Shown here piece by piece: positions 23,544 to 38,458 of a DNA stretch of 64,000 bases. Each line of letters starts with the position of its first letter. Positions within the stretch are counted from its first letter, which is position 1. The position numbers and the translations under genes are program-made. Below the pieces are notes generated by a model. It did no database searches, was not told where the DNA came from, and was given only the letters and a program-made list of their open reading frames with translations. The stretch is from IMG/VR virus record IMGVR_UViG_3300027917_004307; one strand, written 5' to 3'. This stretch comes from a virus. Its lineage: Duplodnaviria; Heunggongvirae; Uroviricota; Caudoviricetes.

Positions 23544-23909
23544 TTATGGGTATGTATAAAGCAACACCGCCAACACAATAAAAAATGTGACCATAATAGG
23601 AACAAAAAAGAACAAAGCCGACCGCAACGCCAAACTGTAATACATTTTACTTCTAGCTGCATTACACATATTAATAATGTGTGGGAAACTGTTTGGGTTA
23701 TAAATATTCAATGTTTTGGAATTGGATGGCGTTATCTCAATCTCAATATTATTATGGCTGCTACAGAAGCACCCGATTGGTCTGCGGCCAAATGGGGTAT
23801 TAACCAGAATGACATGCCCGGCATCGAATTCAGACTCTCTAATATCAAAACCGTTTTCTTTCAGATAACGAATAACACAAACTTGCACTTCATCGTTCAT
23901 AGCGGACAC
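23544..23909 (-). CDS. paralog family 1 small protein (YLKENG...NPNSFPHII) with C-terminal TM helix
   Basis: Shares 'LKENG' and 'NP-x-SFP-x-I(L/I)' motifs with 29870-30121, 37755-38060 and the C-terminal half of 34773-35378. Confidence 0.5.
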   Translation of the reverse strand: MSAMNDEVQVCVIRYLKENGFDIRESEFDAGHVILVNTPFGRRPIGCFCSSHNNIEIEITPSNSKTLNIYNPNSFPHIINMCNAARSKMYYSLALRSALFFFVPIMVTFFIVLAVLLYTYP

Positions 23910-23927
23910 CTCATTCCGAGATTTTCA

Positions 23928-25067
23928 TTAGCACTCACGGCCATTCTTCTCACAAATCACAATGCTTTTATATGTCTCAAGCATCTTTATACTGCCATCA
24001 TTAATAAATTCACTTACAAGTTTGTTGGCTTCACGGTAATGATTAGAACCAACAAAGAAACATAACAACCCATTTGGCGTCAGTTTATTAACAAACATCC
24101 TGAGCAATTCTAAGTCAGTCATTTGCCCGTAGTCACTATCCCCCCTGGAGTATTCGCATAAATGGAACAAACTCACAATATCAAACTGAGGCAACAACTC
24201 CGGATTTAATAGATATATGTCACCAAACAGAACTTTGTACCGCTTAGCCAGACTTGGGTCATTTTTAATCTCTTTCATATAAATGTTATATTCTTCAGCT
24301 GAAGCTGTAATACCCAGCACAATATTATTAGTTGCCATCTTGCCTAATTTGTGGTGGGCTCCGGTTCCAAAATGGAATACAATTTTGTTCTTTGCATTAC
24401 GCTCAGTAAGATAATCCGCCAGGTGAATGTCACATTCAACGCCTTTGGTTAACTTCCAAGACCTGTTGTACGTGTTTAATGTCTTATTAGTGTTGAGAAC
24501 ATCATACCGCTCAATCTTACTTCTAACCGATTTGTGATAATATAAAAGTGCTTCCCATTTTTCTACGTCACGCCCATCTATCTTGACCGAATTTGTCTTA
24601 TAATTCTTGAGCCATTGCATCTTTTTGTCATATAAAGCGTCATCCATACGCAATGAAAATTTGCCGTTTGGATTTGAACAGATTATAGGGCCGCCATACA
24701 ATTCAACAACTTGGCGATGAATTGACCTATGGTGTTGGTGCCCATAATTGCCATGCGTAACCACAACATCAAATCGAGCCAAATCTAGTGCTCGCAATTC
24801 AGCCAATCTGTCAAGTTTTAAGCGGCAATGTGGCTCTGGTTTGTCAATATAATGGCATGGTAAACCAATATAGGAGCATGCTCTTGCGAAATCGTATCGT
24901 CTGTTTACTTCTAACAGATTGCTAGGATAACTACAACATATTATGTGCCACTTTATGTTGATAGTCTTTAGAATTAAACCACCAAACCAACACACTTCAT
25001 CATCGGGATGTGCAACAACGACACAGCCATTTGATGGATTAATCTGTTTTAAAACATTAACCACCAT
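23928..25067 (-). CDS. PIG-L/LmbE-family deacetylase domain fused to a C-terminal Rossmann-like domain
   Basis: N-terminus 'GCVVVAHPDDEVCWFGG' is the PIG-L signature. C-terminal half is alpha/beta-like (IVFHFGTGAHH). Confidence 0.55.
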   Translation of the reverse strand: MVVNVLKQINPSNGCVVVAHPDDEVCWFGGLILKTINIKWHIICCSYPSNLLEVNRRYDFARACSYIGLPCHYIDKPEPHCRLKLDRLAELRALDLARFDVVVTHGNYGHQHHRSIHRQVVELYGGPIICSNPNGKFSLRMDDALYDKKMQWLKNYKTNSVKIDGRDVEKWEALLYYHKSVRSKIERYDVLNTNKTLNTYNRSWKLTKGVECDIHLADYLTERNAKNKIVFHFGTGAHHKLGKMATNNIVLGITASAEEYNIYMKEIKNDPSLAKRYKVLFGDIYLLNPELLPQFDIVSLFHLCEYSRGDSDYGQMTDLELLRMFVNKLTPNGLLCFFVGSNHYREANKLVSEFINDGSIKMLETYKSIVICEKNGREC

Positions 25068-25193
25068 GTTATTCGAAATGCCTTCCTTTGGTTAATCACC
25101 CAACCAAATATAGATCACCATTGCGATGTTCAGAGCCAGCATTACAACACAGGAAATTATCCAGGGTTCCACTTCGCACGCTTATTCTACAAT

Positions 25194-25451
25194 TTACATC
25201 ATATCAATAGCCATGTTGGACATTTTCTGAATTATCCGACCGTTAGTTTTTTGCATGCGTTCATCAAGAGCGTTTCTAGATATCAGCATAATATTATCCA
25301 TATCTGCTGCATTCATAATCATTCCACTCTTCCGAAATACCAATACTGGGTCTTTTACTTTGATTCCTATCTTATCAGCCATAAGTTTAGATATTGCTTC
25401 GATCAGACGCTCACACGAAATTTCGACCGACTCTTCATATTTCTCATCCAT
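25194..25451 (-). CDS. hypothetical protein
   Basis: 85-aa ORF. Confidence 0.35.
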   Translation of the reverse strand: MDEKYEESVEISCERLIEAISKLMADKIGIKVKDPVLVFRKSGMIMNAADMDNIMLISRNALDERMQKTNGRIIQKMSNMAIDMM

Positions 25452-25728
25452 TCAATTCTGGCTCCTCATTTAGCTGGCCTTCGTAATGCACCCAAGTACT
25501 CTTTAACCGTTTGATTATTTCATCTCTGCGATAACGAGCTGGCATTTTGCCTTTCTTGAACCTTCTGACATCCTGCACGGAGACGCCCAAATGTTCTGCC
25601 ACCATCTGGTCAGTCATTTTGCCGTCACAACATCGATACAGATTGTTTATTTTGGTTTTAAAATCCTCAGGTGTCATATAATTATTCAATTTGCACCTCG
25701 ACGCCATACCGTTTGAATAGTTCGGCAA
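25444..25728 (-). CDS. hypothetical protein (possible HTH)
   Basis: 94-aa ORF. 'MTDQMVAEHLGVSVQDVRRFKKG' is helix-turn-helix-like. Confidence 0.35.
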   Translation of the reverse strand: MPNYSNGMASRCKLNNYMTPEDFKTKINNLYRCCDGKMTDQMVAEHLGVSVQDVRRFKKGKMPARYRRDEIIKRLKSTWVHYEGQLNEEPELNG

Positions 25729-36758: not shown

Positions 36759-36871
36759 TTTGCCTTTCTCCAGGATCTCTCTTATTTCCTTTTTATTCTG
36801 CTCTTTTCCAATAAACCACCGCGTCGATCCACGTCAGTGCCTCGACGCTAACAAAGTTGATTCCCATATTG

Positions 36872-37690
36872 TCAGGGAAGGCCTTGAGAGGAGTCTCTTC
36901 GGTCATCAGGCAGTTTCACCGTCGTCTCCGTCCTAGCGAACTTGGTGATCGAGCCGTCCTGTTCCACCACAGCACAGATAGGACCCCATCCTTTAAACTT
37001 GCCCTCCGGAATCGCGCCTAGGATGCCGTTAATGAGCCCAAGAGGGCGAATGCGATTCGACCCATCCTCGGATTTCCCAACCTGAATATCAGGGTCATCA
37101 ACCATGGTGTCATTACAGGACACTTCATGCTCAATGAAAGCACGGCAGGCATCCGGATCAGTCTTCAGGAAACGGTTCATCACATCGATTGCCTTGTCTA
37201 TTGAGTCCATCGTTACTCCTCGTTTAAATCTCTTCTGTATTCTCTTGAACATCTCTTCGTTGGAGATTGTGCGGCCTGCGCGGATGTCGGCCATCCCACG
37301 CTCTACTAAGGTATGAATGGCCCCCTGGAGGAGTTCCTGTAAGACCACGCCCGTATTTGTCTCAACTTGGACAGCCCGGTCATCCCACAATTCGAGCATA
37401 TTGTAATCTTTCTCGTTGGTCACTTCGAGGCGCTTCCCGACATGCTCTTCACACCAATCCTGAATTTCTTGCCTCATCGCCTCGATCTTCTCGGGTGTGT
37501 CGCTCACACGAGTCGGGTCAGGCCTCCCGACGCGGGCGGTCATGATCTTAACTTCTTTTCCCTCAGCCAACCATTTCTTGACTCGTTCAACCATTTCAGG
37601 AATGGGAGCGCCTATCTTGCCGCCATTCCAACCACCATAGACAGCCAAAGTGCCATCTAGATCTACACCTATCCAGCCTTGTTCAGTCAT
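36872..37690 (-). CDS. HAD-superfamily phosphatase-like protein
   Basis: N-terminal 'GVDLDGTLA' DxDGT motif, then a C-terminal extension. Confidence 0.5.
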   Translation of the reverse strand: MTEQGWIGVDLDGTLAVYGGWNGGKIGAPIPEMVERVKKWLAEGKEVKIMTARVGRPDPTRVSDTPEKIEAMRQEIQDWCEEHVGKRLEVTNEKDYNMLELWDDRAVQVETNTGVVLQELLQGAIHTLVERGMADIRAGRTISNEEMFKRIQKRFKRGVTMDSIDKAIDVMNRFLKTDPDACRAFIEHEVSCNDTMVDDPDIQVGKSEDGSNRIRPLGLINGILGAIPEGKFKGWGPICAVVEQDGSITKFARTETTVKLPDDRRDSSQGLP

Positions 37691-37754
37691 TAGCTGGCTC
37701 CTGATCTTGTTCTATCGGCTCCGCAAGAAGTTTGGCGATGTGGGGATGGATCTC

Positions 37755-38060
37755 CTAGACATGGGCGTAGCACTTCTTAATAATTTTCAGGATCCTCGGA
37801 AACGTCTCTGGATCATGCAAATCATAAACATCGTCAGACACGCCCGCGTTCAGTCTCACGCTACTCGCAATCGCCATAATTATGCATGGGTGTGGTCTGC
37901 TTTCTGCTCTAATAACAGCAAACACTTGATCAAGATCTTTTGTCTGATTGCGGATTCCAATATAACCATGAACTGTCTGATTGCGGATTCCAATATAACC
38001 ATGAACGCGAGGAACCACATTCACTCCATTCTCTTTAAGCCATTCGGCTAATTCATCCAA
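37755..38060 (-). CDS. paralog family 1 small protein containing an in-frame 33-bp tandem duplication
   Basis: 'AEWLKENGVNV' and 'DLHDPETFPRILKII'. Duplicated peptide VHGYIGIRNQT x2. Confidence 0.5.
   Translation of the reverse strand: MDELAEWLKENGVNVVPRVHGYIGIRNQTVHGYIGIRNQTKDLDQVFAVIRAESRPHPCIIMAIASSVRLNAGVSDDVYDLHDPETFPRILKIIKKCYAHV
37941..38006. repeat. perfect 2 x 33-bp tandem duplication inside gene 37755-38060
   Basis: tgtctgattgcggattccaatataaccatgaac occurs twice in immediate tandem. Confidence 0.9.
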
Positions 38061-38179
38061 TAGATTATGTTTCGTTTCCTCGTCTATTCTACCGGCTCCT
38101 CAGCATTTCCACCAAATGTAAGCCCAGTGCTACATCAACAAACCCAGAAGTATACAGACGATCAACCACGGGAATTCAG

Positions 38180-38458
38180 TCATCTCTCCTCATCTATCGG
38201 CTCCGCCATCTTCGACACCAATTCAGGAAATTGTTCGGCTATATCTTCTAAGATTTCGAAAGGATCCAAGCCGGGGCCGGTCGTACCATAAAATCCGCCT
38301 GGGGTACTAGCACTCCAAGCATAGTAGTTGCTGCTATCGTATCTGCGAACCTCCAGAGCGCCGCCATTGATTCGAATATGCCAAGCCATATAGCCTTTAC
38401 GGAAAGGATAGTAGTCTTCGCAGATGCGATCCAAGACTTCGGTTGCCTCGTCATCCAT
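38180..38458 (-). CDS. paralog family 2 small protein
   Basis: 'AWHIRINGGALEV' and C-terminal 'EQFPELVSKMAEPIDEER'. Lies directly upstream of family-1 gene 37755-38060. Confidence 0.45.
   Translation of the reverse strand: MDDEATEVLDRICEDYYPFRKGYMAWHIRINGGALEVRRYDSSNYYAWSASTPGGFYGTTGPGLDPFEILEDIAEQFPELVSKMAEPIDEER

Follow-up and report, generated by a model that had tools for sequence, protein, structure and literature searches.

Positions 23,544 to 38,458 of the IMG/VR virus record IMGVR_UViG_3300027917_004307 (Caudoviricetes), analyzed here within a 64,000-nt stretch referred to as the window, raise the question of whether two recurring types of small phage proteins form one duplicated two-gene system or two separate families. 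The original prediction, made without database searches, described two paralogous families in a phage accessory region, family 1 (F1) and family 2 (F2), and held that they had been duplicated together as a cassette and, in one open reading frame (ORF), fused. The two families themselves are confirmed by profile comparisons and shuffle z scores. As for their relation, the balance of the sequence data and a structural model leads us to favor, with about as much doubt as confidence, the view that F1 and F2 are two unrelated, independent, lineage-restricted accessory families, for which binding roles may be inferred.

According to these comparisons, F1 is a previously undescribed domain of approximately 85 residues, with full-length homology at the four sites in the window to which it had been assigned: 23544-23909, 29870-30121, 37755-38060, and the C-terminal half of 34773-35378. 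In leave-one-out profile searches, each omitted member is ranked at the top among the 703 six-frame ORFs of the window, with E values from 2e-8 to 2e-4. A profile built only from the 25 F1 domains of another phage contig (L004, described below) matches all four window members among 9,021 ORFs with E values from 8e-9 to 5e-7, and the alignment spans profile positions 4 to 90 of 93. Because this profile comes from an unrelated phage and matches over its full length, it provides independent evidence of full-length homology. The window copies are mutually 25 to 34% identical, and shuffle z scores between them range from 5.6 to 11.4, except for the pair 23544 and 37755 (z of 2.1). The profiles and the shuffle scores show that the shared motifs are embedded in similarity over the entire domain.

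Every gene in the flagged stretch is on the minus strand, in tight packing. The F1 gene at 29870..30121 encodes a single domain in 83 amino acids (L004-only profile, E of 6e-8; leave-one-out, 2e-8), and its GTG start overlaps the stop codon of the upstream F2 gene (GTGA). The product of 23544..23909 (118 to 121 amino acids; L004-only E of 4e-7; ENA gene call P0002) contains the domain at residues ∼10 to 95, followed by a C-terminal hydrophobic stretch that resembles a membrane anchor. A similar anchor is found in the F1 gene 1701-2180 of contig L088, so that two F1 members carry such anchors. The gene at 37755..38060 (L004-only E of 8e-9; P0005) would encode 101 amino acids if translated from the TTG at 38060. 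This start is doubtful: the TTG is weak and the ENA call begins at 38015, which would, however, remove the conserved first helix. The variable part of this domain contains a perfect in-frame 33-nt tandem duplication (37941-38006, repeat D5) that encodes VHGYIGIRNQT twice. The fourth domain, at 34809..35072, occupies residues ∼103 to 190 of the 201-residue ORF 34773-35378; the L004-only profile matches residues 108 to 186 (E of 5e-7) and the combined profile matches residues 104 to 188.

A candidate fifth, degenerate F1 gene is located at 30380..30778, with a start at 30778, 30763, or 30679. The L004-only profile aligns with it weakly (E of 0.034) over positions 4 to 89, pairwise z scores do not exceed 3.9, and it is missing from the recorded gene calls. 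Codon scoring favors its own frame over the others, and the ORF occupies a stretch immediately upstream of the F2 gene 30118-30393 that would otherwise lack any gene call. The 151-residue ORF 26303-26758 combines a zinc-ribbon motif and a transmembrane segment with the sequence IIWYLKENG, the motif of the first F1 helix. It lacks the rest of the domain, scoring 8.0 bits with the L004-only profile (below the reporting threshold in 9,021 ORFs) and an E value of 2.9 with the combined profile.

Outside the window, F1 is found mostly in tandem arrays. A motif scan of IMG/VR identified contig L004 (IMGVR_UViG_3300027917_000033, 87.8 kb), whose first 9.4 kb (1-9439) contains 25 F1 domains in 22 tandem genes, three of which encode two-domain (F1-F1) proteins. 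F1 is also encoded by all four genes of L085 (Logan SRR22936146), all three genes of L086 (ENA ERZ23495214), five genes of L087 (JGI Ga0255046_10003409), a relative of L004, and five to six tandem genes of L088 (JGI Ga0180434_10005900). At a threshold of E ≤ 1e-3, there are 48 F1 domains in seven loci: 25 in L004, 5 each in L087 and L088, 4 each in the window and L085, 3 in L086, and 2 in L002, the contig that also encodes F2 (see below). A scan of 185,579 bacterial and archaeal genomes with the F1 motif gave no match, and a broader F1 scan of IMG/VR returned L004 again and nothing else. Neither F1 nor F2 is found in 80 IMG/VR loci anchored on thymidine kinase, the closest of these kinases being only 47% identical.

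The suggestion that these genes evolve rapidly holds for F1. The genes for a phosphoesterase and a ParB-like protein (named from reading of the sequence) that flank the arrays of L004 and L087 are 81 to 86% identical, whereas the F1 genes at matching array positions are 29 to 40% identical or have no counterpart; F1 thus evolves, or turns over, much faster than its neighbors. The isoelectric points of F1 domains range from 4.05 to 9.74. Most F1 genes of L004 and many of those in L085 and L087 start with a leader of the form M-K-L-x-x-L-[HY]-E, which is not seen in the window copies and of which traces are kept at the junctions of the L004 two-domain proteins. This leader may function as a propeptide or a targeting signal, or it may supply an additional element of structure.

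Conservation over 45 aligned F1 domains peaks at two places, the end of helix 1 (L-x-x-Y-L-x-E-N-G) and strand 5 together with helix 2 (D-L-H-D-P-x-S-F-P-x-I-L-E-F-I). Between these conserved ends, only alternating hydrophobic positions are kept and indels are numerous; the strands and loops differ among copies not only in sequence but also in length and charge. An AlphaFold2 model of member P0030, based on a seven-sequence alignment, has an α-β5-α topology (helix 13-26, five strands, and helix 89-101), with a mean predicted local distance difference test score (pLDDT) of 67.6, a predicted template modeling score of 0.64, and five models alike. The F1 fold is therefore predicted, at moderate confidence, to be a sandwich of a helix, a five-stranded antiparallel sheet, and a second helix. 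The figures listed for this model against known folds are 8.4 for Med17C, 7.7 for the FP domain of Fbxo7, 7.3 for CyaY/frataxin, 6.9 for the TriTu immunity protein, 6.7 for the C-terminal domain of T4 MotA, 5.3 to 5.9 for type III secretion chaperones, and 5.6 for PsiB. In most of these proteins, the fold serves the binding of other proteins. The likeness of the F1 model to such two-layer α+β sandwich modules (frataxin/CyaY, type III secretion chaperones, FP, TriTu, PsiB, and the MotA C-terminal domain) is one of fold type, not of family: sequence identity is at most 14%, Foldseek E values are not significant, and there is no profile match. Membership in the frataxin/CyaY, type III chaperone, or TriTu families is not indicated by Pfam, which gave no match for 24 F1 members at E ≤ 0.01 except one stray DUF3502. 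A search of PDB sequences with the F1 profile gave a best E value of 0.047, to an unrelated reductase.

The absence of a known family, as originally reported, extends to both F1 and F2, which have no relatives in Pfam, PHROGs, NCBIfam, PADLOC, or PDB. Megablast and tblastn searches of 50,697 GenBank phages show no match to either, and a search of 5.8 billion proteins with the supposedly fused ORF and both family alignments recovered only the proteins themselves, near-identical strains, and one further protein, P0010. We found nothing specific to F1 or F2 in the literature. With the window F1 profile, HMMER matched 27 of 1.84 billion cluster representatives at E ≤ 0.001. Of these, four are proteins of the window itself or nearly identical to them; of the six others that were retrieved, two (P0026 and P0030) are genuine single-domain F1 members and four are ankyrin-repeat proteins matched falsely. 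A further 17, whose sequences were not retrieved, are mostly long with many short matches in the motif region and are probably false positives of the ankyrin type as well. The F1 sequence [YW]-L-K-E-N-G resembles the helix-turn part of ankyrin repeats, W-L-K-E-x-G-A-D-V-N. However, this resemblance covers approximately 20 residues, and F1 has a β-sheet core and no 33-residue periodicity. Membership of F1 in the ankyrin-repeat family was rejected, as the match is limited to profile positions 7 to 30 (YLKENG) and the F1 model contains a five-stranded sheet. Automated expansion of F1 would be contaminated by ankyrin repeats unless matches were required to cover the C-terminal DPxSF helix.

F2 is real but, on the profile evidence, narrower than first described, being defined mainly by a C-terminal tail of ∼25 residues with the approximate pattern [FY]-E-L-L-E-x-[IL]-A-E-x-[FY]-P-x4-[KR]-[KL]-L-A-E-P and a helix-Pro-helix arrangement. 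Leave-one-out profiles place each of the four assigned members (28029, 28421, 30118, and 38180) at the top of the 703 ORFs, though with E values of only 1e-4 to 0.12. The sole outside relative among the 5.8 billion proteins, P0010, led to contig L002 (ENA ERZ6864078, 20.5 kb), from a related phage; the thymidine kinases of this phage and the window phage share 78% identity. L002 contains five ORFs with the F2 tail. A tail profile built from L002 alone matches 30118, 28029, and 38180 with E values from 8e-6 to 2e-4 and misses 28421 (E of 2.3), which joins the family through 38180 and 30118, with a shuffle z of 7.2 to each. Membership of all four genes thus stands, and what does not is the extent of the similarity claimed for 28029, which is confined to the last 25 to 30 residues. 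The tail is conserved as protein and not as DNA, since between copies the codons differ at 3 to 7 of the 4 to 11 residues that are identical; a search of the window for DNA repeats found none that covers it. The codon differences, together with the presence of GGAG in only two tails, led us to reject both the idea of a DNA repeat and that of a ribosome-binding site embedded in the tail to serve the following gene.

Several kinds of N-terminal region precede the F2 tail, and zinc-binding motifs are present in some of them. Only the F2a subset has similarity over the whole length, a domain of ∼90 residues; it includes 38180, 30118, 28421, the gene 979-1275 of L002, and the C-terminal part of L002 9455-9880. 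The WHI motif attributed to the family is present in 38180 and 30118 and, as WTI, in 28421; no other member carries it. The window F2 copies are mutually 28 to 32% identical, and L002 979-1275 is 32% identical to 30118 over 91 residues. The F2a gene 38180..38458 (92 amino acids; L002-only tail profile, E of 2e-4; z of 9.4 against 30118) overlaps the end of the thymidine kinase gene, which thus serves as a conserved anchor: in L002, the F2a gene 979-1275 likewise directly follows the thymidine kinase gene. The second F2a gene had been assigned to 30118-30489, with an over-extended start; homologs and the JGI call P0009 place the start at 30393 (MTETES), giving a 91-residue product from 30118..30393 (L002-only tail profile, E of 8e-6). 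The most divergent F2a gene, 28421..28726, encodes 99 to 101 amino acids and a tail ending in KLSRP (leave-one-out rank 1, E of 0.015).

The fourth member, 28029..28310 (93 amino acids), combines the F2 tail (L002-only tail profile, E of 2e-5) with a different N-terminal region (F2a full-length profile, E of 2.2) that contains a Cys/His motif, CWARGH...C...CxxC. Its ortholog is P0010 (L002 3682-3951), with 53 to 55% identity. The N-terminal part is strongly conserved between the two, as KFVCWARGH[RK]WL[YH]ASREAC...GGIF.PR.CLRC, and looks like a small Cys/His metal-binding module without a database match. A scan of JGI metagenomes and IMG/VR with these two proteins found no relatives. At 2386-2925, 4523-5215, and 10399-10797, L002 also encodes a release-factor-like protein (PCRF/RF-1), a peptidyl-tRNA hydrolase (PTH2), and a PTS_2-RNA (Tpt1/KptA-type) phosphotransferase. 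Such a set of translation and RNA-repair genes is unusual for a phage accessory region.

The proposal that F1 and F2 proteins act together was based in part on ORF 34773-35378, read as a fusion of an N-terminal F2 half with a C-terminal F1 half. The F1 half is confirmed, as described above. The N-terminal region (35073..35378, residues 1 to 102) belongs to neither family: the F2 profile gives -0.2 bits for its first 100 residues, and its shuffle z scores are between -1.0 and 1.4 against every F1 and F2 member (-0.7 to 1.4 against all eight F2 proteins). A phmmer search with this region returned only itself and an allele in a 642-bp scaffold (L003), with no paralog. Sequence comparison thus shows the WHI-like resemblance to be a matter of chance. 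A second, degenerate F1 domain in this half was ruled out by the single domain match. An F1 domain behind a different N-terminal extension is also found in L002 (5437-5880). As the N-terminal half lacks similarity to either family, the Rosetta-stone argument fails, the ORF being an orphan N-terminal region joined to one F1 domain, and the two families are to be studied separately.

What is left of the proposed link is gene order. An F2 gene is indeed located directly upstream of an F1 gene twice, at 30118/30121, where the genes overlap by 4 nt, and at 38180/38060, with a 119-nt gap. The GTGA stop/start overlap of the first pair suggests translational coupling. Under random placement, at least two such adjacencies would arise with a probability of 0.042 for a region of 40 genes and 0.007 for 100 genes. 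The top-scoring pairs within each family are 30118/38180 (z of 9.4) and 29870/37755 (z of 11.4), which fits a single old duplication of a two-gene segment, although the margins over other pairs are small. These observations would be expected if F2 and F1 formed a two-component module, either toxin/antitoxin-like or an effector with its adaptor, that was duplicated as a cassette. However, the claimed fusion does not join the two families, and half of the window genes in each family (two of four F2 and two of four F1) have no partner beside them. Nor do related genomes keep the pairing: among the five F2 and two F1 genes of L002, none are adjacent (the next gene after the F2a gene that follows thymidine kinase is a second F2 gene), and the F1 arrays of L004, L085, L086, L087, and L088 contain no F2. 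No toxin, antitoxin, or defense domain was found in Pfam, PHROGs, PADLOC, or NCBIfam, which, with the lack of conserved adjacency, leaves the toxin/antitoxin idea unsupported. Nor was duplication recent, as F1 copies at 25 to 34% identity and F2 copies at 28 to 32% are old paralogs. A common origin of F1 and F2 in one superfamily was rejected by hhalign, with probabilities of 0.07 to 0.2%. Judged by gene order and family content, F1 and F2 are not an obligate two-gene system, and we regard a duplicated two-component module as unlikely.

For two independent accessory families, the following roles may be envisaged. In F1, the two conserved helices are probably the scaffold, on which strands and loops vary, and the family multiplies by tandem duplication and by fusion of neighboring copies. 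Each copy could be a small protein-binding module, an inhibitor or an adaptor, whose variable sheet face recognizes a different protein of the host or of a rival phage, and a set of copies would then make up a repertoire for host takeover or counter-defense. The F2 tail might act as a common docking element through which different proteins are brought to the same partner. By analogy, an anti-defense or host-takeover role is plausible, and large T4-like phages are known to exchange accessory “anti-defense islands” (PMC12028318).

Several points weigh against this view. The term “binding module” is inferred from fold type and evolutionary pattern. The structural model of F1 is only moderately confident, and one of 29870-30121 from four sequences reached a pLDDT of 47 and is unusable. 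Foldseek searches of PDB and BFVD with the F1 model gave no significant match, so the fold assignment is topological only. F2 is known from two phages and nine proteins. Furthermore, the two F2-F1 adjacencies exceed chance (P of 0.007 to 0.04) and one pair appears to be translationally coupled, so that a functional link within this phage is conceivable. A bolder and considerably less probable version of the same view is that F1 is a new hypervariable binder scaffold of large uncultivated phages, with a conserved frame of two helices and a sheet face that diversifies by duplication, slippage, and fusion, that arrays of 4 to 25 domains are combinatorial counter-defense repertoires, and that the KLAEP tail of F2 is a portable docking peptide bringing unrelated effector modules to one hub, conceivably the F1 proteins in this phage.

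A special case of the favored view, in our estimate a rather improbable one, is that F1 proteins are of the immunity type, each neutralizing one toxin (an abortive-infection effector of the host, for example, or a polymorphic toxin), and that the arrays correspond to polyimmunity loci. Polyimmunity loci and viral multigene families, such as the gene “accordions” of poxviruses, likewise consist of tandem divergent paralogs of small domains, and F1 reaches 25 domains in 9.4 kb, with fusions and fast turnover. In contrast to these systems, F1 arrays have no linked toxin, and the F1 copies are old and divergent, not recent amplifications. Together with the internal proteins of T4-type phages, these are the nearest analogies.

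The T4 comparison raises another possibility, which we also consider doubtful, namely, that F1 proteins are packaged in the capsid and injected with the DNA, with MKLxxLxE as a cleavable capsid-targeting peptide. The polymorphic internal proteins of T4-type phages (IPI, IPII, IPIII, and their variable relatives) resemble F1 in being small, numerous, and fast diverging and in their location in hyperplastic regions of T4-like genomes. An N-terminal targeting peptide is common to the T4 internal proteins, and an L-x-E pattern marks cleavage by the T4 prohead protease; in IPI*, a small sheet lies between N- and C-terminal helices, and the protein inhibits a restriction enzyme of the host. The phage of the window is itself T4-like, with a Gp23 capsid protein and a Peptidase_S77 protease, and many members of L004, L085, and L087 begin with MKLxxL[HY]E, which ends in the L-x-E pattern. 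However, the window F1 proteins have no such leader at their N termini (MNAIFAIAKYLKENG, MSAMNDEVQ, and MDELAEWLKENG), and L004 and L087 encode beside the array a protease that on inspection looks ClpP-like, rather than S77. In addition, the leader persists inside the F1-F1 fusions of L004, two F1 members end in membrane anchors, which does not fit packaging, and F1 has no sequence similarity to T4 internal proteins.

The notion that the shared motifs arose by chance or as a by-product of repeated DNA, the ORFs not being real related genes, draws on the short pairwise BLAST alignments in the window (15 to 42 residues) and on a 23-nt stretch encoding NPNSFP that is 91% identical between 23544-23909 and 29870-30121 (repeat D13), but it is refuted, leaving it scarcely any probability, by the recovery of members with independent profiles from other phages, shuffle z scores of up to 13, synonymous differences among F2 tails, the best codon scores of all ORFs in their own frames, and the calling of all eight ORFs by the ENA assembly gene prediction.

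The window is part of the ENA metagenome contig ERZ27279932:k141_869270 (261,688 bp), from an uncultivated T4-like giant phage. Pfam searches of the contig gene calls identify the Peptidase_S77 prohead protease and the T4-type major capsid protein (Gp23; window 40116-41666), as well as the thymidine kinase at 38451..38975 on the minus strand (PF00265). Among the 50,697 GenBank phage records, the nearest relative of the capsid protein is in the uncultured 595-kb phage LR756511.1 (39.7% identity), followed by cyanophage proteins (31% identity), and megablast of positions 28000-40000 against the same records found no related phage. At ∼22 to 39.5 kb, precomputed Pfam matches identify a PIG-L domain, DUF488, a metallophosphoesterase, a radical-SAM enzyme, and thymidine kinase, to which we would add, from our reading of the translations, a second phosphoesterase and MazG-like, phosphoribosyltransferase-like, and HAD-like genes; many small unannotated ORFs are interspersed with them. 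Promoter and terminator scans gave counts no different from the chance level.

The G+C content of the window is mosaic, at 38 to 40% around 12-18, 22-26, and 62-64 kb and 53 to 56% around 8-10, 40-42, and 46-48 kb, perhaps because its modules differ in origin. Positions 35453-35533 and 35848-35928, 395 nt apart, form a perfect 81-nt direct repeat that flanks the gene 35546-35824. Each copy contains the 3′ end of a small membrane-protein gene and the start of a short ORF, MNGAECGECGK; the three ORF starts of this type (35488, 35824, and 35883) define a small zinc-ribbon-like family. The repeat looks like a scar of recent recombination or duplication, or is possibly an assembly artifact.

In other respects, the locus is typical phage dark matter, and both families are rare in public data. 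If the proposed binding role holds, F1 would be an unannotated domain among the phage accessory families that diversify in the manner of arms-race genes, and it now has a seed alignment of 48 domains. The L004 array, with 25 domains in 22 genes, offers a convenient place to seek binders involved in counter-defense or host takeover, and the compact, conserved peptide of the F2 tail may serve as a bait for a shared partner.

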